Shown: positions 24,986 through 48,000, numbered from the stretch's first letter. The stretch: DNA of 64,000 nt from Candidatus Saccharimonadota bacterium (GCA_027492255.1 JAPUFB010000003.1:13889-77888); one strand, 5' to 3'. Notes: generated from the sequence alone by a model not told the origin. Translations and numbers: made by a program.

Positions 24986-25108
24986 TGTCGTAATTATATC
25001 AAAAAGAAGCCTCGCAGCCCCTTCAGCTAGAAACTATTATTCAATACCAAGAAAAATAGCCCATACGGGATGGACTACTCTTCTTAGTACGCTTTCGTAT
25101 ATAGGATC

Positions 25109-25300
25109 TTAGTAGGCTTTCGTTGCGCCGTCTTTTACTGCTTTTTCCGCATTGTCCTTAGACATCATTGCGCAAACTGTTGTTCCACATTTTTCATGCT
25201 TGCCTTTGGCCATGAAACCACCTGATTTAGTTTTGACAACTTCTGGAGCTGACAATTCAACGCCTTTTTCCTTACATTTAACGCAGTATCCTGTAACCAT
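25109..25300 (-). CDS. small zinc-ribbon protein (DUF5679-like)
   Basis: 63 aa, CVKC...x...CGTTVC. GAGGAG is the SD. Confidence 0.5.
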   Translation of the reverse strand: MVTGYCVKCKEKGVELSAPEVVKTKSGGFMAKGKHEKCGTTVCAMMSKDNAEKAVKDGATKAY

Positions 25301-25369: not shown

Positions 25370-25807
25370 CTACGCTTGTCCATCTCGTATTGGATCAAAT
25401 TCTACTGTCCACTCAATGCCAAATTTGTCTCTAAACATTGCAAAATATGTCCCCCATGGACTCTCGCTCATAGGCATCTCAACAGCTCCTCCCACTGAAA
25501 GACCGGCAAATATTTTGTCAGCTTCTGCTTGGCTTTCCGCGGCGACCGCTATTTTAGACCTGTTTTCATCTTCGTTTACGCGTCCCATACTTTCAGGCAC
25601 ATCGTTGGCGATTAACACATTGCCGCCAATTGGCAAAACAATACGCATGATCTTATCGGCTTCGTCATCTGATACGGGAAATTCAGAGTTTTCTAAATCT
25701 TTAAAGCGCACAATGCTCGTAAACTCTCCGCCAAACACAGATTTGTAAAAGTTGAAGGCTTCTTCGGCATTTCCATTGAAATTAATTTATGGGTTGATTG
25801 TTGCCAT
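25370..25807 (-). pseudogene. VOC/PhnB-like (glyoxalase-fold) gene with in-frame TAA at codon 7
   Basis: From ATG 25807: MATINP*INFNGNAEEAFNFYKSVFGGEF... The family consensus has Tyr (I-x-P-Y-L/I-x-F-x-G-N-A) where TAA sits (25787-25789). The ORF track only finds the GTG-started remainder, 25370..25738. Confidence 0.65.
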
Positions 25808-25960
25808 GTAGATTGTCCTCCTGAGTACGAGTCTTAAACTTCTAGCCGCGCGGTCGACTTACGTCCACTGTCCTATGTCCATATTATAGCATTTTTTAGA
25901 GCATCAGTCATTACAACGCAGGTATCAAACGTTTCGGTCACAAAGGGCTATACTTAATAT

Positions 25961-26620
25961 ATGAGTGATGAGATTGAACTTGATAACGTGTATTATTTTT
26001 CTGTTAAAAAACGCCAACACCCTGAAGTTTTTAATCTAGTCCAGAATGTAATTGAAGATTCAAACCAACACAGTGGAGATAAATTGGAAATTCAGAGAAG
26101 GCTGCGACTTTTGACTACCAGCGAAGGGAATGAGCATTTAAGACAGTGTAGTAACTTTTTAGCTGAAGCTTTAGCCTTTGCGGAAATACATAATAAGGGA
26201 CAGACGCCTCATTGGGTGCCTGTAACTTCTCTGCCAACACCTGATATTAAGTATGAGGCGAGTGGTATGTTTCAACCTGTAGAAGTAAAGCACTTAAATA
26301 GTCCGAGAGAAGAACATGAGGCATTGGCGAGTGGAATGATGTACGGAGGTTCCGTGAACATGGACTATGATGCTGGACTTGTTAGGAAGATAAATGATTT
26401 TATCGTGTCTGCTAAATCAAAGTTCCTTCAATTCAATGCATCTGTTAACGAAACCGAAAGCGAGAAGGGTACTCTGTATCTGTACTTCAGCAAGTCCATC
26501 GATGCTGGTCTGACAGACGGCATAGAATGGCAGAAGACCATGAAAGAAAGAATAGCGGACATAGCAACGCCTTTATGCGGTGATGAAGTTAACTTGATAA
26601 TCGAAGATATAAACGAATAG
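25961..26620 (+). CDS. hypothetical protein with PD-(D/E)xK-like nuclease motif
   Basis: 219 aa; LPTPDIKYEASGMFQPVEVKHL reads as PD...x12...E-V-K. TATACT lies 6 nt before the ATG. Converges on the HEPN-like gene with a 14-nt gap. Confidence 0.45.
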   Translation: MSDEIELDNVYYFSVKKRQHPEVFNLVQNVIEDSNQHSGDKLEIQRRLRLLTTSEGNEHLRQCSNFLAEALAFAEIHNKGQTPHWVPVTSLPTPDIKYEASGMFQPVEVKHLNSPREEHEALASGMMYGGSVNMDYDAGLVRKINDFIVSAKSKFLQFNASVNETESEKGTLYLYFSKSIDAGLTDGIEWQKTMKERIADIATPLCGDEVNLIIEDINE

Positions 26621-26634
26621 TTCGTACAACCGAG

Positions 26635-27090
26635 TTAGTCTCTCCAACTCCACTCATTATGAATTGCTGCATGGGCTCTCTTTAGCAGTCGTACGTACAA
26701 ATCATCGACCATCGAGTTGGCATCATAATGACCAAATGTTCCTACTTTCCCGTATCTTGTTTCTATAACATTTCGGTCCTTGAATTCAGGATACTTATCG
26801 AAAAACTCATTTATCAAATCTCTTGTTACATCGTCTTTGACTATCTCAAGGGCTTTATCTTTGGTTCTACCTAACTCATGGCTGAATTTCTTCATTTGAG
26901 CTGTGGTTGAGTATTGTTTATCTATACAAATTAGTGCCTTCAATAAAAACTCTATAGAAAAACAGAATGCTACATACTTGGCTGTCGTAAATCTAGGTCG
27001 AGGGAGACTCATTCCTTCCGTAGCTAAGTCGTACCACTCCATGCTACGACTTAATAGCGATGCGGGCGTATGGTCATAATCTTTAGACAT
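26635..27090 (-). CDS. HEPN-like domain protein (third gene of orphan operon)
   Basis: 151 aa. Helical pattern AFCFSIEFLLKALICI ... KFSHELGRT ... VIETRYGK matches the classic HEPN layout (ExxLKA, sHxL, RY). 8-nt overlap with the upstream gene. Confidence 0.5.
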   Translation of the reverse strand: MSKDYDHTPASLLSRSMEWYDLATEGMSLPRPRFTTAKYVAFCFSIEFLLKALICIDKQYSTTAQMKKFSHELGRTKDKALEIVKDDVTRDLINEFFDKYPEFKDRNVIETRYGKVGTFGHYDANSMVDDLYVRLLKRAHAAIHNEWSWRD

Positions 27091-28189
27091 AATACTCCTG
27101 GCTGCTGAATAGCTCTTTCACGTATTTATTGAAATTTTCATGGTTAATACCCAAAGTATTACTGCCTGTCTCGAATATATCAAATACAGTTTTGACACTA
27201 TGGTTTTCAAACTCTAGACCATAAACGGGTACAGCAAACATATTTTTATTATCCATTACAAATCCATGCAGTTCGCCGATGAACCTCAGCGCAGATATTT
27301 CTATGCCATGTCTATTTGCATCCCTCGGCACCATTACCCACGGTATCGACTCTTTATCCAGCGCAAAGGATTGCTTATCTGCTTTTACTAATGATTCCTT
27401 CAGTTTATCAATTGCTGGACCCATGTCCCAACTGGCCTGAAAATGCACGTTTACATTGTTGGGATTGAATGAAAACATGAAATCTGATGAGTAGTCATTA
27501 TTCCGAATCATGGCACTCAAAGTCATATCTGAATATCTCGCTAAGTCTAAATCTTCTTCAAACGCTATAGCCATTTTTTCTAATGATTTATGTATTAGCT
27601 TCTTATCGGGAGTAAACACCGAAATTAATATACTTTGGTTCCTAACCAACTTTATAACACGCAGCAGTTCACTTGCAGATGCGTTCACTATATCTTCGAA
27701 ATATAGCCTGCTATTAGGAAAAGTTTTAGCGTCTGACGCAAACGGAATCTCTAATAAGTCAACATCGGCTAGCCCTTTTTGTTTTGAAGAATTAAATCCT
27801 ACTTTGATGTTTTGGTATTTATAAAAACCTCCTACAATGATTTCATTAAGAGACGAAAGCATTGGGCCAGAGTTAGGACTTAATAATCCACGTTGTAACT
27901 CAGATAAGTAATCAGGGTTTGATTTGATTTCATCTTTCAACTTACCTAGTACTGAAGCAGTGAATTTGAAATACCCATAGTCGTCTGCTGGCACACTCTG
28001 CTGCTGATGACTATAGAGATGACCATTGAATTCGTAGCTTGTATTGATAATAAACCTCATCGAAGGATTAGTAACACCAATCAGCTTGTTGGTGTATGTG
28101 CGCCTCATACATTCCTTAATAGCGTTTCTAATAGCCTCATGTCCAAAAACATCAATATATTTCTGAAGACTAATTGCTCTCTTATGCAC
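27083..28189 (-). CDS. hypothetical 368-aa protein (second gene of orphan operon)
   Basis: GTG start sharing one base with the upstream TAG. No family recognised. SLNEIIVGG...GLADVDLLEIPFASDAK could be an E...D...DxK nuclease core (weak). Confidence 0.5.
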   Translation of the reverse strand: MHKRAISLQKYIDVFGHEAIRNAIKECMRRTYTNKLIGVTNPSMRFIINTSYEFNGHLYSHQQQSVPADDYGYFKFTASVLGKLKDEIKSNPDYLSELQRGLLSPNSGPMLSSLNEIIVGGFYKYQNIKVGFNSSKQKGLADVDLLEIPFASDAKTFPNSRLYFEDIVNASASELLRVIKLVRNQSILISVFTPDKKLIHKSLEKMAIAFEEDLDLARYSDMTLSAMIRNNDYSSDFMFSFNPNNVNVHFQASWDMGPAIDKLKESLVKADKQSFALDKESIPWVMVPRDANRHGIEISALRFIGELHGFVMDNKNMFAVPVYGLEFENHSVKTVFDIFETGSNTLGINHENFNKYVKELFSSQEYYV

Positions 28190-29001
28190 TATTTCTTTAC
28201 CTGCATTAATATGTCTGACTTGAATCGTCCATTACCGTAGCTTCTATTCCACATTTCTTTGTTAGAAAAATAGAAGTGGGTTAATAGAACTTCGTTTTCC
28301 TTGGTACCTTGAGCAGTAATAATCTTTTGCATATTTTCAAGCAATGATGAAATCAACATAGATTTAATGATTACTCTTGCATGGTTAAAGGCTAGAGTAT
28401 TCTCGTATATTACGAAGTGTTTGCTATCCTTTTTCTCACGTGTGTAATAAGTTAAAGATGAATCGAATTTTGCCAACGGGAATGACTGACCATCTGAAGT
28501 TCTTACAGTATATACACTTTCATTGGTGTTGCCCCTAACTCTAAAGCCATGTTTATAAGCATTCAAAAACTGAGCATCAAGATTGTAGTCGCTCATCACT
28601 TCGCTAAGTATAGATAAATGCTCATCTAGCTTATTTTGATAATTCTTGATGGATTCTTTTTCGTTAATGCCAAAGGCGTAATGTTCCAGAATCCATTTCT
28701 TGAACTGAAGAGAGTTTTCCGTTTTCTTAACAAAATCCAAAATCTCATCACTGCGAGAGAACATCCCTTCAAGGATAGTATTCTCTCTCCCAGCGACAAT
28801 CATCATATTTATCATTAAGATTTCGCTTAATTGCATGTATGTAGCGTAAAGCTCAATCAGATGCCTTCTTTTTGTTTTGTCGGTTTTGAGCTTTTGTAAT
28901 TTATCGGCAATATGCTCGATTCTTTTAAGCCATCCTGAAAAATCTTGCTGGCTGTAGTATTCATAAAAAAAATCTTGAAGTGCATTGTCTTGGTCGACCA
29001 T
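28189..29001 (-). CDS. hypothetical 270-aa protein (first gene of orphan operon)
   Basis: ORF 28189..29055 (GTG), but GGAGGA (complement of 29012-29017) lies 10 nt before the ATG at 29001 (MVDQDNALQDFF...). No family recognised. Confidence 0.5.
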   Translation of the reverse strand: MVDQDNALQDFFYEYYSQQDFSGWLKRIEHIADKLQKLKTDKTKRRHLIELYATYMQLSEILMINMMIVAGRENTILEGMFSRSDEILDFVKKTENSLQFKKWILEHYAFGINEKESIKNYQNKLDEHLSILSEVMSDYNLDAQFLNAYKHGFRVRGNTNESVYTVRTSDGQSFPLAKFDSSLTYYTREKKDSKHFVIYENTLAFNHARVIIKSMLISSLLENMQKIITAQGTKENEVLLTHFYFSNKEMWNRSYGNGRFKSDILMQVKK

Positions 29002-29175
29002 GACAATATTATCCTCCAATCTAATCTCTTTAGCTACCAAGTATATGTAGCTCACGTCCGAAAAGCCTCACGTGCGGTCTGAGAGGTATCTCGGAGTGTC
29101 TAAGCGCGCGTATCTAAGGACGCTTTTTGCTGTAAAACGGTAAGAAAAATAGCCATATACGATGGAATACTTTCT

Positions 29176-29198
29176 TGGTGCGGGTACAGGGACTCTAA
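29176..29198 (-). repeat. displaced copy of the 3' terminal 23 nt of tRNA-Gly (att-like direct repeat)
   Basis: tggtgcgggtacagggactctaa is identical to 33356-33378. Confidence 0.8.
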
Positions 29199-29225
29199 AC
29201 CCCGAACGCCGAAGCGTTCGGGCAA

Positions 29226-29290
29226 TCACACCTGGACTATTGATTTCTTTGACGAGGTCCAGGGTTAGAGAATTACAATACATACCAAAC
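29226..29290. repeat. 65-nt repeat (copy A) containing a 20-nt sense copy of tRNA-Gly positions ~40-59
   Basis: tcacacctggactattgatttctttGACGAGGTCCAGGGTTAGAGaattacaatacataccaaa, compared with 33261-33324. Flanked by hairpins at 29203-29224 and 29296-29316. Confidence 0.75.
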
Positions 29291-29522
29291 GTAAAACCCC
29301 AACGACGAGGTTGGGGCATTACATTTGGTGCTCAACGAGCAGAAAGTTGTACACCCATTTAGCCTTGATAGCTTTGCTGTACAGAGCCTGGAAGTACAAC
29401 GGTGGCGTGATATTCTTGCTGTTCCGTATGCCAACTATAAGAGTATGTTAGTGCCTCGCTAGACTTACACACCACGCCATAGTTATGCTTGATAATAAAA
29501 ATATAAAACCTACAATAGCCTT

Positions 29523-30035
29523 ATGGACTACAAACAACAGAGTAACCAAGGCTGTCTCGTCGTAGACTTGATGTACTTATTTGGCATAGAGCCAACCAGA
29601 GACAAGGAACAGGATATTTTGAGTGATGGGCTATTTAGATTGCGTGAGAACTATACGCTAGGCTGTTTACTTGCTTTTCTCGAACGCTACGAAGATAAGT
29701 CAGTAACGCTATACGTTGACAACAAGTACTATCTGGATATTCTGAAACAATGGGTCAAGCATCCACGCATAGAGATGGTGCATAAGAAAAATGACACCAA
29801 GTTGCTAGACACTCTCGACACGCCTTTTATTGTCTACGTCGACAACAATATAACTGATGGCTGGACGCACCTACCTCACTTTATGATGGTTACAAGTGCT
29901 ACAGATAAGTTCTATAGTGTCTTTGACCCTTGGGATGGTAAGACAGTTAGGCTCTCGAAAGATAAACTACTCAACGGAATTGAGCTTTTGCGTACTCACG
30001 TTAAGGTTTGCCCGTTCATTATTCAAGCCAACTAA
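29523..30035 (+). CDS. papain-like cysteine peptidase, C39-like
   Basis: 170 aa. QQSNQGCLVVDLMYLFG (Q-x5-C) and HFMMVTSATDKFYSVFDPW (His ... DP) follow the C39 bacteriocin-processing peptidase pattern. TTGATA-16 nt-TACAAT ends 6 nt before the ATG. Confidence 0.5.
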   Translation: MDYKQQSNQGCLVVDLMYLFGIEPTRDKEQDILSDGLFRLRENYTLGCLLAFLERYEDKSVTLYVDNKYYLDILKQWVKHPRIEMVHKKNDTKLLDTLDTPFIVYVDNNITDGWTHLPHFMMVTSATDKFYSVFDPWDGKTVRLSKDKLLNGIELLRTHVKVCPFIIQAN

Positions 30036-30229
30036 GCCCCCCTACCCATCGTGCACATCATTTTTGATAAGCTTGTAAACGCACTTGTCAGCTAAAAATA
30101 TGTCGGTATCAAAAAATGGTTTGTTTTGCCATTTCACCCAACAATTACGAACAGGGGTCGGCATTAAAAAATCGCCCAACAAACAAAAATGAGCTAAACA
30201 GAGGTGAGCCGTTGGTATGCCGTTAGATA

Positions 30230-30967
30230 CTAGGCTGTTTTGTTGGGTTCAGTAGCATCTTTGAGACTATAGTGGTCAAGAACTTGCCTAATGTTATCCG
30301 CTAGTTGCAAGGGGCTTACGTTGACGAAAACTTTAAGTGGATGGTTGTCTGGCAAATTGACGAAATAGTCCTCACGACGTTCAACATCCCAGTGTTGGAT
30401 TGAGGTGCGTAGTTTATTGACCTCGTTAACTTTTTCCATAAGTTCGGTGTTGTAGATACTGGGCTTGCCTGAAAGTTGAGATGCCAATTTAGTTATCTTT
30501 GTTACAAAGCCTTTAGCGGTAAACTCGGGAAATGTCAGCTCTTTGCCGTCAATCTCTACTTTTCTTTCCTTGTTTTTGCGTATATACAATTCGTACACCA
30601 TACTTTCAAGCGAAGAATATAAACCAAGCAATCCTAAAGAGAGTAACTGGATATAGGTGTAGAAAAGCTCCTCGTCAACTAGGTGGTAGCTAGCGTTTGT
30701 TGTTGCGGTCTTCAAAGCCCGTGATTTGATGGCTTCCGCTTTTTCTAAGTCTCTTTTTGACTGGAAAAAGATAAGCTCTGCCATACTTGGTAACGATAAC
30801 GATACTTGCTGACCAGCTATATCAACAAATGCAGAACCTCTTACTACCGACCCGACTGGATGCTCTATACCGTTAGGACCCTTAAACGGCTTAGTAGTTG
30901 TTGACTCAAAGAAAACACGTGGGTCACCGTATTTGATTGACCTATATTTTCTATTGTTATTAGCCAT
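30230..30967 (-). CDS. hypothetical protein with C-terminal Rx4H (HEPN-type) motif
   Basis: 245 aa; VNEVNKLRTSIQHWD carries R-x4-H in a helical C-terminal half. 6 nt downstream of the S51-like gene. Confidence 0.4.
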   Translation of the reverse strand: MANNNRKYRSIKYGDPRVFFESTTTKPFKGPNGIEHPVGSVVRGSAFVDIAGQQVSLSLPSMAELIFFQSKRDLEKAEAIKSRALKTATTNASYHLVDEELFYTYIQLLSLGLLGLYSSLESMVYELYIRKNKERKVEIDGKELTFPEFTAKGFVTKITKLASQLSGKPSIYNTELMEKVNEVNKLRTSIQHWDVERREDYFVNLPDNHPLKVFVNVSPLQLADNIRQVLDHYSLKDATEPNKTA

Positions 30968-30973
30968 ACAGCC

Positions 30974-31570
30974 CTACTGCTCAAAGACTTTATATTCGCC
31001 CTCTTCTAGAGCGTAAATTGGTAGCGACTTATCGCCATATTCTTCAAGTTCACGCTCCGCTTGCTCCCAGTCAATACTGCCACGTGGGTCATCGTCACCA
31101 AATGCTGAGTTGTAGTGGGGTATAAACTTGATTGGCAGTATCCCAAAACCATCACCGCACTGCCTCCAGTCGCAAGTCCAGTAGTGTGTAACTAACAGAT
31201 TGGAACTAGCCGAGTTAGTTGCAACGACTTTATCCTTGAATAACTCTACTAAATCAAACTGACGCATCCAGTACTGAATTAGGTGGTCATCTCCACCGTG
31301 GAAGTAGATAATATCAGCTTCGCTACATTGTGTAGTAAAAGTATCGGGCATTGCTAAAGCAAATGATGGGCTTACGGTATCTGGCAAGTCTTCTGATATA
31401 GCGTCCGAGTAGCCTTGAAACTTTGCCTCCCAATACTCCCTACCTTGTGCGAAATTACAGAGCAGAAACTTAGGACTATCGCCTAAGTCTTTGACAAGTT
31501 CTCTATGGAACTCTCGCTTGAGATTTGGTGCGTTTTTTATACCGCCAGAGTTAATAACATATTTCGTCAT
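30974..31570 (-). CDS. peptidase S51/type-1 glutamine-amidotransferase-like protein
   Basis: 198 aa. ADIIYFHGGDDHLI and VVATNSASSNLL correspond to the dipeptidase-E family blocks. 4-nt overlap with the upstream gene. Confidence 0.5.
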   Translation of the reverse strand: MTKYVINSGGIKNAPNLKREFHRELVKDLGDSPKFLLCNFAQGREYWEAKFQGYSDAISEDLPDTVSPSFALAMPDTFTTQCSEADIIYFHGGDDHLIQYWMRQFDLVELFKDKVVATNSASSNLLVTHYWTCDWRQCGDGFGILPIKFIPHYNSAFGDDDPRGSIDWEQAERELEEYGDKSLPIYALEEGEYKVFEQ

Positions 31571-32433
31571 CTGCTTACAAAGCTCCCTATGGTTTCTGCT
31601 AGGCTATCTTCAAATCCTTTAAATCCGTGCGAAGCACCGTCCACCACGGCTATCTTAGTATTGGCATTTTTGATAGCGTTAACACGCTCTAGCCATTTGT
31701 CCATAGAACCGTCAATCTGTGTAATACCAATATCCTCAGTACCATATGGTATAAGCATTGGTAGCTCAACTCTACCGAGAAGTGAACCGCCATCACGCTC
31801 ACCGTAAATGTCCGCAGAACTACCAGCTTCACAGATAGTAGGATAGGTTTGTGCTGAAATTGGTGTTTTATCGAGCCAGCACTGAGCATCTACAAGTTCT
31901 TCTCCCTTGCCTTCAGACAAGAGTTGTTTTGCTTTGGCTAAGTATTCAGCGTGCATCGGCTCTGTGTTTGCCCAGCCTGTCATATCAGTTGGTGCTAACA
32001 AGATGACTTTCTCAACGCCGTTAACATCTTCGTTAAGTACAAAGTTAACAACTTTGGTGCATCCTAAAGAGTGACCTTGTAATATGAGCCGTGTTTTTCC
32101 GAGTGACTTCAGGTAGTCGATTGCTCCACGGATATCGTGGGCACTCTCTTCAAAAATCTCAAAACAACTCCCAGCGTGCTTCCAGCCATCACCTTGTCGA
32201 AAATCGCTAATGATACCCCGACCACGACTGTCTATAGTGAATAGTGATACGTCGTACTCAGCGTACATTGCTCGTAGATTATCAAGAAAATAGTTCTCGT
32301 AGCCGTTGCCTGACATACCGTGAATGTGCACAACAGCAATATCACTTGCCTCGTTGTTGAGCCAGCCTTGCAATTCGACATCGTCAGATGCTTTAAAGCG
32401 GACAAAATCTACAGTGCTTTTTGAGTACTCCAT
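31567..32433 (-). CDS. alpha/beta-fold hydrolase
   Basis: 288 aa. HIHGMSGN oxyanion region, nucleophile elbow GHSLGC, C-terminal DGASHGF. Confidence 0.65.
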   Translation of the reverse strand: MEYSKSTVDFVRFKASDDVELQGWLNNEASDIAVVHIHGMSGNGYENYFLDNLRAMYAEYDVSLFTIDSRGRGIISDFRQGDGWKHAGSCFEIFEESAHDIRGAIDYLKSLGKTRLILQGHSLGCTKVVNFVLNEDVNGVEKVILLAPTDMTGWANTEPMHAEYLAKAKQLLSEGKGEELVDAQCWLDKTPISAQTYPTICEAGSSADIYGERDGGSLLGRVELPMLIPYGTEDIGITQIDGSMDKWLERVNAIKNANTKIAVVDGASHGFKGFEDSLAETIGSFVSR

Positions 32434-32500
32434 AATAAGCCTATTATATACTGTTTTATATGATAGACACCCGCAATCGCTGGTTGAACGAGGACGGCTT

Positions 32501-32585
32501 GGGTTTGTATTAGGGTTTGTATTAGGGTTAGACCCTAAACAGATTTGTATCAGGGTTTGTATCAGGGTTAGACCCTAAACAGATT
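32501..32585 (+). repeat. two tandem REP-like units: 12-nt direct repeats GGGTTTGTAT(T/C)A followed by hairpin (T)TAGGGT-tag-ACCCTAA(A)CAGATT
   Basis: Unit 1 is 32501-32545 and unit 2 is 32546-32585, immediately 5' of the Y1 transposase gene. Confidence 0.75.
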
Positions 32586-32617
32586 GGTTAGTTCGGATTT
32601 TGTGATATTCTAATAAC

Positions 32618-33208
32618 ATGCCATCTCGTAATACAGTTCGTCAGTACGATGCTCCAGCATATTATCATGTGTATAATCGCGGTGCGGGCGGAAGCTATAT
32701 TTTTAGAGATGCTCAGGATAAATATAAGTTCCTATCACTCGTACAACGCTATTTGAGTCACGACTCGCAATATGAAAAATATCCTACTTTCGATATCGAG
32801 CTTATTGCCTACTGTGTCATGGGAAACCATTTTCATTTGCTACTATTCCAGGAGCATGACCTTGAAGCAATCACGAAGCTCATGAGGTCGGTCTCGACTT
32901 CTTACTCAATGTATTACAACCTCAAGTACAGGTCTCATGGCCACGTGTTTCAAAGCGTGTTTAAAGCCGCTAGGATAACTAATGAATCATACCTTGCACA
33001 TATTACACGCTATATACACTTAAACCCCGAAACATACCTGACATACAAATGGTCAAGTTTACGCTACTACATGGGCGAGCAGCCGCCGGACTGGGTAAAT
33101 CCAGCAAGATTACTTGATATGACTTCCATACAATACAAGAAATTCCTAGAGGATTATGAGGATCGAAAGAAGCTCTTAAAAGAGGTTAAGGATCAGCTGG
33201 CACTATAG
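32618..33208 (+). CDS. IS200/IS605-family Y1 (HUH) transposase, RAYT-like
   Basis: 196 aa. VMGNHFHLLLFQ (HUH motif), RYIHLNPE (catalytic Tyr helix). TGaTATTCT lies 6 nt before the ATG. Hairpin GGGTC...GACCC (33214-33236) follows the stop. Confidence 0.75.
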   Translation: MPSRNTVRQYDAPAYYHVYNRGAGGSYIFRDAQDKYKFLSLVQRYLSHDSQYEKYPTFDIELIAYCVMGNHFHLLLFQEHDLEAITKLMRSVSTSYSMYYNLKYRSHGHVFQSVFKAARITNESYLAHITRYIHLNPETYLTYKWSSLRYYMGEQPPDWVNPARLLDMTSIQYKKFLEDYEDRKKLLKEVKDQLAL

Positions 33209-33260
33209 CCATGGGTCTAGGTAGCTTGACCCAGAAACCGACGCGTTCGCGTTCGGAGAG

Positions 33261-33324
33261 TCACATTTGGACTATTGTTTTCGTTGACGAGGTCCAGGGT
33301 TAGAGAATCAAATACATACCAAAG
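33261..33324. repeat. 65-nt repeat (copy B); its 20-nt box is a perfect inverted repeat of part of the adjacent tRNA-Gly
   Basis: 33286-33305 (gacgaggtccagggttagag) is the exact reverse complement of 33373-33392 inside the tRNA gene. Confidence 0.8.
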
Positions 33325-33355
33325 AAAAAACCGACCGAATGGTCGATTCTTTCTT

Positions 33356-33432
33356 TGGTGCGGGTACAGGGACTCTAACCCTGGACCTCGTCCTTGGCAA
33401 GGACGCGCTCTAAACAACTGAGCTACACCCGC
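33356..33432 (-). tRNA. tRNA-Gly (anticodon GCC) with non-canonical D-loop/T-loop
   Basis: Acceptor GCGGGTG/TACCCGC, anticodon stem CGTCC/GGACG, loop TTGCCAA, T-arm CAGGG-TTAGAGT-CCCTG. CCA is encoded; 77 nt. D-loop AGTTGTTTA (G18 U19) and T-loop A56 replace G19/C56. Confidence 0.8.
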
Positions 33433-33505
33433 ATGATGGTGTAAAAGTATAACCGGAAGGTACAATGTGTGCATCTATAGTTGCGTCCTTGGCCTGGCAA
33501 GGATC

Positions 33506-33594
33506 GGTCACCTTCGGCGACCCCCGAACTTCGCTATTGAAAACAAGTTTTCATCGGAAGATTCGTTTCCGAACTGCCACTGGCAGTTCTCACC
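33506..33594 (-). repeat. copy X2 of an unclassified ~85-90-nt hairpin-rich element (possible structured RNA or miniature mobile element)
   Basis: Minus sense: GGTGAGAACTGCCAGTGGCAGTTCGGAAACGAATCTTCCGATGAAAACTTGTTTTCAATAGCGAAGTTCGGGGGTCGCCGAAGGTGACC. Homologous to 47891-47977. Confidence 0.6.
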
Positions 33595-33617
33595 CTAAAC
33601 AACTGAGCTACACCCGC
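33595..33617 (-). repeat. duplicate of the first 23 nt of tRNA-Gly
   Basis: ctaaacaactgagctacacccgc is identical to 33410-33432. Confidence 0.8.
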
Positions 33618-34166: not shown

Positions 34167-34235
34167 GCATCAAGTGTACACGAAGTTAAGGGCATGAAAA
34201 GTAAAACACCCTAGGCAAGCTAGAGTGTTTTACTT

Positions 34236-34260
34236 TGGTGGCTCCTCCCAGACTTGAACT
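34236..34260 (-). repeat. displaced copy of the 3' terminal 25 nt of tRNA-Phe
   Basis: tggtggctcctcccagacttgaact is identical to 34370-34394. Followed by its own terminator hairpin at 34201-34233. Confidence 0.8.
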
Positions 34261-34369
34261 AGAGGGACAGAGCCCTCAGCAAAAACCATCGCTCTTCAAG
34301 GCCACGCCTGAAGAGCCTTGTGAATAAGTACCAAAGAAAAAAGACCAGCTCTTACTGATCTTCATTCTT

Positions 34370-34445
34370 TGGTGGCTCCTCCCAGACTTGAACTGGGGAC
34401 ACAAGGCTCTTCAGGCCTCTGCTCTACCAACTGAGCTAAAGAGCC
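34370..34445 (-). tRNA. tRNA-Phe (anticodon GAA)
   Basis: Acceptor GGCTCTT/AGGAGCC, D-loop AGTTGGTA, anticodon loop CTGAAGA, T-loop TTCAAGT. CCA is encoded; 76 nt. TGaTATAAT (complement of 34469-34477) lies 24 nt upstream. Confidence 0.9.
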
Positions 34446-47804: not shown

Positions 47805-47811
47805 AAATAAG

Positions 47812-47839
47812 AAGGTCACGAAAGTGGCCTTTTTGTTTT
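47812..47839 (+). terminator. intrinsic terminator after tRNA-Val(UAC)
   Basis: AAGGTCAC-gaaa-GTGGCCTT followed by TTTTGTTTT. Confidence 0.7.
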
Positions 47840-47892
47840 GGTGAATAATTGTGGACTCAAACAGCCGACCCTCTCTGGCGGAGGGGTCGGGG

Positions 47893-47977
47893 TGAGAATT
47901 GCCCGTGGCAATTCGCAAGGAAACCTTCTCTTGAAAACTTGTTTTCAAAGATGAAGTTTCGGGCCAGCCGAAGGTAG
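47893..47977 (+). repeat. copy X1 of the unclassified hairpin-rich element, inserted in a partial tRNA-Val(UAC) 3' half
   Basis: TGAGAATTGCCCGTGGCAATTCGCAAGGAAACCTTCTCTTGAAAACTTGTTTTCAAAGATGAAGTTTCGGGCCAGCCGAAGGTAG. Preceded by GAGGGGTCGGGG and followed by GTCGAGCCCCTCAGCGCCCACCA. Confidence 0.6.
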
Positions 47978-47978
47978 G

Positions 47979-48000
47979 TCGAGCCCCTCAGCGCCCACCA
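47979..48000 (+). repeat. displaced copy of the 3' terminal 22 nt of tRNA-Val(UAC)
   Basis: tcgagcccctcagcgcccacca is identical to 47783-47804. Confidence 0.8.

Follow-up and report, generated by a model that had tools for sequence, protein, structure and literature searches.

In the genome of a Candidatus Saccharimonadota bacterium (GCA_027492255.1), a 4.2-kb islet lies beside a tRNA-Gly gene and ends in a second copy of that gene's 3' end, and no integrase is encoded in it. How did this DNA enter the site, and can it still leave? In the present study, we analysed the islet within a stretch of 64,000 nucleotides (JAPUFB010000003.1:13889-77888, here called the window) and compared it with other genomes of the order. 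An earlier note on this DNA had taken the repeated tRNA end for the scar of integration of the cargo and had offered two explanations of the missing integrase, its loss or mobility through something else such as an HUH enzyme. Our comparison favours loss, since intact copies of the island carry a recombinase and the window keeps only its detached tail. We consider it quite probable that the islet is the remnant of a split island of a large serine recombinase (LSR), inserted at the extreme 3' tip of tRNA-Gly(GCC).

Layout of the islet and the repeats at its ends

The minus-strand tRNA-Gly(GCC) gene, identified by ARAGORN and Rfam, occupies 33356-33432. GCACCA at its 3' tip (TGGTGC on the plus strand, 33356-33361) is read as the attB core and the proximal junction, and this core is common to the distal junction. 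Beside the tRNA, also on the minus strand, lies a trailer module, M1 (33238-33355), with a palindromic terminator (33318-33359; 88% identical to the trailer of tRNA-Gly(TCC) in the same genome), a repeat block (R65-R), an inverted fragment of the tRNA and a hairpin. M1 sits where intact islands have the 3' end of the recombinase gene. Next comes an IS200-like unit on the plus strand (32504-33232). At 32504-32583 it has two tandem 40-nt repeats with GGGTTAGACCC hairpins; the ORF of a RAYT-like Y1 transposase takes up 32618-33208, and a hairpin at 33213-33232 closes the unit. The cargo operon (30230-32433, minus strand) encodes a DUF1749 alpha/beta hydrolase (31567-32433), an S51-like protein (30974-31570) and a 245-aa Rx4H-motif protein (30230-30967), which we label HEPN-like. 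A variable slot on the plus strand (29474-30229) holds here a C39-like peptidase gene (29523-30035). Pfam was used for the annotation of these genes. Next to the slot stands a conserved 146-nt end unit on the plus strand (29325-29470), whose ORF (29325-29462; 45 aa, LVLNEQKVVHPFSLDSFAVQSLEVQRWRDILAVPYANYKSMLVPR) begins inside the core TGGTGC at 29326-29331, the distal junction. A second trailer module on the minus strand, M2 (29176-29324), has a terminator hairpin (29297-29316), the other repeat block (R65-L), an inverted tRNA fragment, a hairpin and the 23-nt copy of the tRNA end. Beyond this copy, a minus-strand terminator at 29142-29175 is 84% identical to the terminator after a DUF5679 gene (25049-25085), so that a further pair of direct repeats encloses the block 25370-29141, which is low in the GC profile.

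The two repeats noticed earlier at the ends of the islet are both real. The 23-mer TGGTGCGGGTACAGGGACTCTAA, the last 23 nt of tRNA-Gly(GCC), occurs exactly twice in the window (29176-29198 and 33356-33378) and was never found in 100 dinucleotide-preserving shuffles; the identity reaches 24 nt, or 27 nt with one mismatch. The second repeat, described as about 65 nt long, extends over an 83-nt block with about 87% identity (29214-29296 against 33249-33329) and is adjoined by hairpins at 29201-29223 and 33238-33256. The order of the two repeats is swapped between the ends, with the tRNA fragment preceding the 65-nt block on the left and the block preceding the tRNA on the right. In addition, each block contains a perfect 20-nt inverted copy of positions 41-60 of tRNA-Gly (29251-29270 and 33286-33305, corresponding to 33373-33392 in the gene). 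Both repeats belong to the tRNA-trailer modules and are not the ends of the mobile unit.

Shared ends, the empty site and the recurrence of the cargo

The end of the mobile unit was located by comparison of its copies. The 146-nt unit recurs with 93-97% nucleotide identity in six other contexts and with 74-79% in two more, each time with sharp edges, and the island always ends in ...GAGCACCA(A), after which the flanks are unrelated and open with a terminator hairpin of the kind expected at the start of a native tRNA trailer. Among independent copies the homology ends at the 6-8-nt core GCACCA(A); in eight contexts it does so within 1-2 bases, with unrelated right flanks. GCACCA stands at both junctions not only in the window (33356-33361 and 29326-29331) but also in L055, L068, L069 and G365. 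Thus, the mobile unit ends at 29326-29331, 127 nt further in than the 23-nt repeat that had been proposed as its boundary. We infer, rather than observe, the position of the crossover and its exact dinucleotide. No excised circle and no attP junction were seen, and a collection of viral contigs gave no exact match.

An empty site exists in G004, a genome of the same genus, in which tRNA-Gly...GCACCAAATGTAATGCCCCAACC runs on directly into the sequence that follows GCACCA at 29331 in the window (86% identical to 29331-29238). No site was found in which tRNA-Gly meets what lies left of 29176, as the earlier reading predicts; the junction found is that with the sequence left of 29331. According to the same note, its reading would fail if related strains showed no presence/absence polymorphism and if the 23-nt repeat belonged to a general family of tRNA fragments. 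The polymorphism exists, as G004 demonstrates, and the repeat does belong to such a family, since about half of the tRNA genes in this genome are accompanied by copies of their ends.

The cargo itself has moved between distant hosts. The operon is 89-93% identical at the nucleotide level in L055, L065, L069 and G365, while other genes of these genomes are 70-73% identical to the window or unalignable; in G365 the remaining matches to the window are at 70-73%. Between L055 and G000, BLASTN found besides the island only tRNA genes (80-99%) and one 204-nt stretch of VIT1 (72.5%). The cargo recurs in distant Saccharimonadales, always 3' of tRNA-Gly(GCC). The end unit accompanies it at 93-97% identity in L055, L063/L066, L067/L068, L069 and L070/G365, and L065 has the cargo only. 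The 146-nt unit is present in just 5 genomes out of the 401 of the order, spread over four families with up to 97% identity. The variable slot differs between copies: L055, L069 and G365 have an MFS transporter there, L063 a glyoxalase and a GNAT gene, and L065 and L068 other genes. Homologues of the 245-aa protein occur in neighbourhoods with restriction-modification, HEPN or serine recombinase genes. Horizontal transfer is evident from this comparison, and the islet of the window is acquired DNA at the tRNA-Gly 3' end. That part of the earlier proposal holds, and the boundaries assigned to the islet do not.

The recombinase of intact copies and its detached tail

As the earlier note had stated, the islet has no tyrosine or serine recombinase: tblastn with five LSRs gave no match in it, and the window has no PF00589 match. 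The whole 855-kb genome encodes one Xer-type tyrosine recombinase, one LSR on another contig with weak similarity to CcrB and XisF (NCBIfam), and one Y1 transposase, that of the islet. The Xer-type protein, its only PF00589 protein, scores far below the cut-off as an integron integrase. An integron-like cassette array was also considered and rejected, given that there is no integron integrase and that the modules are tRNA-derived and follow the sequence of the local tRNA.

In the intact copies of L069 and G365, the tRNA-proximal edge carries a 524-aa ORF with a Resolvase domain, which is convergent with the tRNA and has its stop codon within the antisense of tRNA-Gly. In G062, a 68%-identical homologue is represented by its N-terminal part, about 6 kb away from the 146-nt unit, and in L055 the recombinase is reduced to a C-terminal remnant. 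Since a recombinase stands at the tRNA edge of homologous copies and is absent from the window, we classed the window copy as a decayed member of this group. The missing integrase would accordingly be an LSR and not of the tyrosine type, and the 524-aa protein is presumed to be an active recombinase.

The 146-nt unit links the window to this recombinase. Its 45-aa ORF is kept as a protein even where the DNA is only 74-79% identical. In the last 24 codons, 0-4 second-position changes stand against 4-13 third-position changes among the copies (0-1 against 4-13 without the most divergent copy, G097). The L069 recombinase reads ...KSF-MV-RVRGL*, with MV encoded by ATGGTGC, and the tail of L069 reads (L)V-LKEQ... 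in the same frame. Furthermore, in Ca. Saccharimonas aalborgensis a homologue of the tail (61% amino acid identity) lies 6.7 kb upstream of L336_0161 and is likewise in frame. We sampled 17 recombinase homologues for the reading of the core. All of them have (L/M)V at this place, and 12 continue with VRV(R/K/Q/W)(G/R)L, the antisense of tRNA-Gly; 11 of these stop there and one reads on. One sampled homologue carries a tail, because two islands stand in tandem. On its coding pattern and frame, the 146-nt unit is what remains, at the far end, of the lost recombinase gene: the segment for the enzyme's 45-aa C-terminal tail, in frame across the GCACCA core. Two observations count against this model. 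In Ca. S. aalborgensis the recombinase-side flank has no recognisable tRNA, and L068 has the same end unit together with a very different recombinase (24% identity) that reads the unit out of frame, so that the model needs the extra assumption of tandem accretion.

The history that we propose is as follows. An intact island has the order tRNA-Gly, the convergent gene of the 524-aa recombinase, cargo, the 146-nt end unit, GCACCA and the host's tRNA trailer. Because the core lies inside the recombinase reading frame, integration would detach the last 45 codons and leave them at the far end of the island, and the integrated gene would instead take its last few codons from the antisense strand of the tRNA. 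M2 would be the pre-existing trailer of tRNA-Gly, in place before the island arrived. Still present in the window copy are the distal junction (29325-29331), the cargo operon and the recombinase tail; the body of the recombinase and the element half of the proximal junction have been lost, and M1 and the IS200-like unit with the RAYT-like gene now stand in their place. With these two parts gone, the islet is most likely fixed and no longer able to excise. M1 is an 87% copy of the M2 core right beside the tRNA; integration by a serine recombinase does not produce it, and a separate event is needed for it. We infer the origin of M1, as well as the order of the events that removed the recombinase.

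Trailer modules, rival explanations and known systems

The trailer modules are found well beyond the islet. In the island-free G004, the sequence directly after tRNA-Gly is 86% identical to M2, and G003 has a module with 81% identity; the counterpart of M2 in L055 contains fragments that match the tRNA of L055 itself. Self-fragments lie at a distance of 75-190 nt from about 13 other tRNAs, and the modules of tRNA-Phe and tRNA-Val(TAC), which we looked at in detail, are insertions without cargo. M1, M2, the tRNA-Phe module and the pieces bearing an 88-nt tRNA-associated repeat, X2, have a common layout, in which copies of the tRNA's own ends stand on either side of the intact gene and a small conserved insert lies beside the copy. 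M1 and M2 carry a hairpin in place of X2. Their inverted fragment follows the sequence of the local tRNA. The match is perfect in five of seven genomes, with four tRNA variants among them, and the remaining two genomes show one or two mismatches. We set the tyrT/rtT repeats of E. coli beside these modules, and an Rfam search that accepted E values up to 1 found no RtT here. One tentative and rather doubtful explanation is that the modules (M1, M2, Phe, Val, and the X2- and E44-bearing pieces) are not decayed integrase scars but an undescribed class of miniature insertions, 130-190 nt in length and directed at tRNA genes; each insertion would rebuild the tRNA end, supply a terminator or promoter, and copy part of its target in direct and inverted form. 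If this is true, a second tRNA tip would be made as a side effect and could serve as a decoy attB, a module beside the tRNA, such as M1, could sever an island from its integrase junction, and the match of the inverted fragment to the local tRNA would stem from the way of insertion or from selection for pairing.

Three other explanations of the islet were weighed. A classical island from 29176 to 33378, bounded by the 23-nt repeat and inserted by a later lost tyrosine-type integrase with a T-loop crossover, would suit a repeat that is exact and begins in the T-loop (position 55), a known sublocation of integrases, and Dehalococcoides ssrA islands leave 20-bp repeats of such a kind (PMC3146451). 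Against it, GCACCA(A) and not the 23-nt fragment marks the end of the cargo in independent copies, most of the right flanks inspected lack an exact copy of the tRNA end, and the intervening 127 nt are the native trailer in G004. Moreover, self-fragments lie near about 13 other tRNAs, with cargo-free modules at Phe and Val(TAC), and the only tyrosine recombinase of the genome is of the Xer type. We regard this course as very improbable, though an older and separate insertion may well have left the 23-nt fragment as its scar and M2 as its remainder. Entry of the cargo by natural transformation and homologous recombination, with the tRNA gene and the trailer modules as anchors and the serine recombinase irrelevant here, seems very unlikely to us. 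Across these genomes the tRNA gene keeps about 91-99% identity, identical blocks of 20-25 nt are available in the modules on the far side, and the proximal part of the islet varies among copies in a way that fits recombinational mosaicism. However, the unrelated right flanks in the eight contexts leave no right-hand homology for a crossover, and in the window the tail cut off from the recombinase has remained an uninterrupted ORF.

Mobilisation by the HUH/Y1 enzyme through the flanking hairpins and 65-nt repeats, as in IS200/IS605 or REP/RAYT, is extremely unlikely. The islet does hold the genome's only Y1 gene (Y1_Tnp, E=2e-7 in Pfam; NCBIfam REP_Tyr_transpos 40 bits, below the 80-bit cut-off) with hairpins on either side, and this RAYT family and X2 co-occur beyond expectation among 251 genomes, whose relatives are not independent (47 shared, odds ratio 2.6). 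On the other hand, X2 occurs without this family in 71 genomes, the hairpins of the unit have no further copy elsewhere in the genome, and Y1 transposition leaves no duplication of a tRNA end. The family is patchy (74/251 genomes), its copies are divergent, and those in other genomes are old paralogues. These features of the Y1 gene and its hairpins concern the unit of about 730 nt and not the islet as a whole. Every other island copy lacks the RAYT-like gene, and its unit of about 730 nt stops exactly where homology to intact islands resumes (at 32502 in the alignment with L069). With its own unit and its absence from the other copies, the gene is a later passenger and not the mobiliser, contrary to the HUH option of the earlier note.

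The split serine-recombinase island, which we prefer, shares features with several known systems. With the LSRs of phages and mobile elements (phiC31, Bxb1, A118, SPbeta SprA and SCCmec CcrAB) it has the Resolvase catalytic domain in common, and the recombinase of L068 also has the Recombinase and zinc-ribbon domains of phage-type LSRs. A short core and little identity between attP and attB are what is expected for these enzymes. To our knowledge, these LSRs have attP beyond the integrase ORF, rarely target tRNA tips and take their direction from a separate factor; no such factor was identified in the tRNA-Gly island. An attP within a gene, so that integration alters or splits the product, is a feature of the SSV-type archaeal integrases and of integration-dependent immunity in mycobacteriophages. 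The likeness to the tRNA-Gly island lies in this position of attP; the difference is that both systems rely on recombinases of the tyrosine type. Integration divides the SSV integrase gene into large pieces, and in the mycobacteriophages the repressor is the shortened gene.

The closest likeness is with the ssrA islands of Dehalococcoides and their LSR DsiB, which use the 3' end of a tRNA-like gene as site (McMurdie et al. 2011, PMC3146451). The DsiB gene occupies the edge next to the target gene, in opposite orientation, overlaps attL/attP and has a stop codon that depends on the junction; the islands form tandem arrays, carry accessory genes and include integrase-less 'cis-mobilizable' or fixed members (PMC3146451). 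The type of insertion site, the placement of the recombinase and the accessory cargo are shared with the tRNA-Gly island, as are the junction-dependent stop codon, tandem islands and copies devoid of an integrase. In contrast, the target in Dehalococcoides is tmRNA with a T-loop crossover and a 20-bp repeat (PMC3146451), and the island described here uses a core of 6-8 nt at the tip of tRNA-Gly; DsiB is accompanied by DsiA and other module genes that are not seen here; and a conserved detached tail was not identified by the Dehalococcoides authors (PMC3146451), whereas the 45-aa tail described here is conserved as a protein. The islet adds a decayed example to an already known kind of island that resembles the ssrA islands of Dehalococcoides.

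tRNA-derived repeats and the surroundings of the islet

The islet (29176-33432) lies at the 3' end of tRNA-Gly(GCC), which occupies 33356-33432 on the minus strand. The repeats reported in the earlier note were confirmed. An exact second copy of the last 23 nt of the tRNA is located at 29176-29198, with no such match in 100 shuffles, and a second repeat pair (29214-29296 and 33249-33329) shows 87% identity across 83 nt. The order of the 83-nt repeat and the tRNA fragment is swapped between the two ends of the islet, and both 83-nt copies contain a perfect 20-nt inverted copy of tRNA-Gly positions 41-60. The islet ORFs encode a C39-like protein, a 245-aa protein with an Rx4H motif, an S51-like protein, a DUF1749 alpha/beta hydrolase and a RAYT-like Y1_Tnp protein. 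PADLOC gave no defence match among the islet and neighbouring proteins, and an exact-protein look-up of the flanking metallopeptidase found no further contig. The host genome (855 kb, 6 contigs, 45.6% GC) carries one Xer-type tyrosine recombinase, one large serine recombinase (contig C5) and one Y1 gene, that of the islet; reverse transcriptase, IS110-type and TnpB-type proteins had no match in it at E <= 0.01.

Long tRNA-fragment repeats would mislead here if taken as island borders, and Saccharibacteria genomes carry a separate layer of tRNA self-fragments. In about 13 of 41 tRNA genes, the last 11-25 nt are repeated exactly at 75-190 nt downstream, and in about 9 the first 13-36 nt recur at 87-190 nt upstream; short inverted tRNA fragments often lie between the tRNA and the copied end. 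At tRNA-Phe, 1 kb from tRNA-Gly (34233-34445), the gene is followed by a palindromic terminator, an inverted fragment, a 3'-end copy and a second terminator. The module there (within 34198-34445) measures 134 nt; besides the terminator it has a 17-nt inverted fragment of the anticodon arm and 44 nt copied from the 3' part of the tRNA. Its empty site is found in the same-genus genome G004, in which tRNA-Phe is directly joined to the trailer located beyond the fragment in the window. In the compared locus L055, the orientation of tRNA-Phe to its neighbour VIT1 is the reverse of that in the window. At 47805-48000, tRNA-Val(TAC) is followed by a module of 175 nt, in which the small repeat X2 sits in the T-loop of a partial tRNA copy and whose last 22 nt repeat the tRNA end exactly; its empty site is on contig C84 of the same-genus genome G003. 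X2 measures 88 nt, has 5 full copies in the host genome and is present in 118 of 251 genomes of the order; a second small repeat family, E44, also adjoins copied tRNA ends.

The same layout follows tRNA-Gly(GCC) itself. A terminator with an inverted fragment, in some cases also with a 3'-end copy, stands after this tRNA without cargo in G004, G020, G015 and G025, after the cargo in L055 and beside a DUF5679 gene in G003; seven other relatives have a plain terminator only. Five of the seven genomes, with four tRNA variants among them, have an inverted fragment that agrees exactly with their own tRNA; the fragment of G020 has two mismatches and that of G003 one or two. Because G003 has such modules on either side of its DUF5679 gene, an integron-like cassette array was considered; it was rejected, as no integron integrase is present and the modules are derived from tRNA. 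As an origin of the trailer modules, inverted duplication by template switching, scars of a T-loop integrase and long target duplications were also considered, and each fits only part of the pattern. Upstream of tRNA-Gly, 33433-33617 holds an exact copy of the first 23 nt of the tRNA, X2, a distorted anticodon arm and a new promoter-like TATACT box. This is a 185-nt insertion with a 23-nt repeat, because in G004 and G006 the tRNA stands right after the conserved upstream sequence; the insertion is also present in G003.

Beyond the 23-nt fragment, the block 25370-29141 has a low GC content (36-40%) and orphan genes and is bracketed by terminators of 84% identity (29142-29175 and 25049-25085). 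Neither G004 nor G003 has it between trailer and DUF5679 gene. This block is a second, separate acquisition at the same hotspot; with the islet counted too, at least two acquisitions and the small modules are stacked downstream of tRNA-Gly. On its far side, a conserved gene of about 64 aa (25100-25300, minus strand) shows 83-86% DNA identity in same-genus genomes, and its G003 homologue matches DUF5679. This gene directly follows the tRNA-Gly trailer in G004 and stands between two trailer modules in G003.

The distal end of the island and a probable split recombinase gene

The distal end of the island is marked by a conserved 146-nt unit (29325-29470), which recurs with 93-97% identity and sharp edges in the loci L055, L063/L066, L067/L068, L069 and L070/G365. 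The unit ends in ...GAGCACCA(A), and the bases beyond it differ between contexts and start with a terminator hairpin. The more divergent copies of G062 and G097 (74-79%) likewise have GCACCA at their end and a terminator after it. In the window this distal junction is intact and reads from the tail through the core GCACCA (29326-29331) into the native trailer module M2 (29176-29324). The segment 29238-29331 is 86% identical to the sequence directly 3' of tRNA-Gly in G004, from GCACCAAATGTAATGCCCC on, and G004 is a natural empty site of the island.

The tRNA-like conservation of the unit, its sharp edges and the terminator after it prompted its consideration as a chromosomal ncRNA gene. No Rfam match was found in it, and the ncRNA reading was rejected because the unit is present in only 5 of 401 genomes of the order, from four families, and its substitutions are distributed by codon position. 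The last 24 codons show 0-4 second-position and 4-13 third-position changes; without the most divergent copy, that of G097, the second-position changes fall to 0-1 against 4-13 at the third position. A role as promoter of the variable gene was rejected, as the neighbouring gene lies in either orientation among the copies. The reading that we favour is that the unit represents the detached end of a recombinase gene, as judged from its coding pattern and the following comparisons. On the strand opposite to the tRNA, the unit holds a 45-codon ORF beginning in TGGTGC, the reverse complement of the core, and copies with only 74-79% DNA identity keep the tail peptide (L/M)V...QK(V/L)(V/L)H...LE(V/I)QRWR(D/E)ILAVPYA.YKS(M/K)(L/I)VP.

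The other part of the gene was found at the tRNA. In L069 and G365, a 524-aa Resolvase-domain ORF directly adjoins tRNA-Gly(GCC) in convergent orientation and has its stop codon inside the antisense tRNA. The L069 protein ends in ...KSF-MV-RVRGL*, in which MV is encoded by ATGGTGC. The tail ORF shares this frame, and a single uninterrupted protein would thus be encoded after excision. Among 17 sampled recombinase homologues, all have ...(L/M)V at the core, and in 12 of them VRV(R/K/Q/W)(G/R)L follows, which is the antisense tRNA-Gly acceptor and T arm; 11 end there. The published genome of Ca. Saccharimonas aalborgensis provides an independent case of a split recombinase: L336_0161 ends in ...EKSS-LV-QHS* at a TTGGTGC core, and 6.7 kb upstream of it the same strand has, in frame with it, a tail ORF of 61% identity. 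G062 has the N-terminal 110 residues of a 68%-identical homologue about 6 kb from its 146-nt unit, and only a C-terminal remnant of the 524-aa recombinase is left in L055; no remnant of this type was found in the window.

Islands of this kind are also stacked, as directly seen in L086, where two recombinases stand in tandem. In L068, a different recombinase (564 aa, 24% identical) belongs to an 11.6-kb island that ends in the same 146-nt unit, read out of frame, and we interpret it as a later island that came to lie on what was left of an earlier one. The C5 recombinase of the host has no BLASTP match to the L069 type and shows 32% identity to the L068 type. Its gene (C5 441-2078, in locus L031) runs antisense through the whole tRNA-Leu(TAG), and the perfect 135-nt inverted repeat on its flanks (155-289 and 1836-1970) takes in the trailer of that tRNA; upstream of the tRNA there is a nearly full-length pseudo-tRNA-Leu broken by X2. 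The segment 155-2250 could be invertible or an assembly effect at the contig end.

Cargo transfer, decay of the islet and comparison with known islands

The hydrolase, S51-like and 245-aa genes show 89-93% nucleotide identity on contigs reached via homologues of the 245-aa protein, and the other genes of the hosts sharing this cargo align at 70-73% or not at all. By BLASTN against the host genome, L055 matches outside the cargo only in tRNA genes (80-99%) and in a 204-nt piece of VIT1 (72.5%), and therefore the cargo was exchanged recently between distant lineages. In G365, tRNA, recombinase, small genes, S51-like and 245-aa genes, an MFS gene and the 146-nt unit follow each other over 5.8 kb, and the S51-like and 245-aa proteins have 93% amino acid identity to those of the window. 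Between the 245-aa gene and the 146-nt unit is a variable slot, filled by the C39-like gene in the window and by MFS, glyoxalase plus GNAT, or others elsewhere. This slot (29474-30229) and its homologues hold a different gene in almost every island copy, with both flanks more than 88% identical, and thus are a swap point inside the island. In L055 (8532-9797), an rve-family transposase insertion breaks the S51-like gene; the two flanks have 8 bp of the window sequence (31164-31171) in common, which fits a target duplication. With 540 recombinase homologues at E <= 1e-20, split serine-integrase islands are apparently one of the main ways by which genes move from family to family in these small epibiotic bacteria.

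On the proximal side, the sequence after the tRNA tip differs from the recombinase end of L069, G365 and L055, and a second trailer module, M1 (33238-33355), is found there instead. In its terminator, M1 is similar to the trailer of the host's tRNA-Gly(TCC), and in its 65-nt core it shares 87% identity with M2. Adjoining M1 is an IS200-like unit of roughly 730 nt (32504-33232) with hairpin repeats in tandem, the RAYT-like gene and a terminal hairpin. The earlier note had suggested the HUH enzyme as a possible mobiliser. Homology to the intact islands starts again at 32502, right at the edge of this unit, and the enzyme is a passenger instead. The RAYT family is patchy (74 of 251 genomes of the order, with 1-9 divergent copies); a DNA search of eight same-genus genomes gave no match to it, and the hairpins have no other copy in the host genome. 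The RAYT copies of G036 and G051, inspected for transposon ends, have only short flanking palindromes, and no ends could be derived from them because they are old paralogues.

In the history that we propose, M2 would already have been the tRNA-Gly trailer when the island integrated at the tRNA tip. The second module M1 and the IS200-like unit may have entered subsequently, and an adjacent deletion would have taken out the recombinase. As attL has lost its element half, excision of the islet should have become impossible, even with a recombinase supplied in trans. The earlier view of an island at the tRNA with a lost integrase holds, but its borders, core and integrase class had to be revised, as the island ends at GCACCA and the intact copies carry a serine recombinase. 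By comparison, an islet without integrase has been explained, with the integrase family identified, the junctions mapped to the base and a natural empty site named. If the 45-aa tail, which is lost on integration, controls the enzyme, the island would have its own inbuilt switch, which would be relevant to the engineering of serine integrases. Our literature searches on serine recombinases and genomic islands in Saccharibacteria returned nothing relevant. As a decayed copy, the islet belongs to a known kind of island, described for Dehalococcoides, for which McMurdie et al (PMC3146451) suggested that the gene is complete perhaps only on the circle or beside another island.
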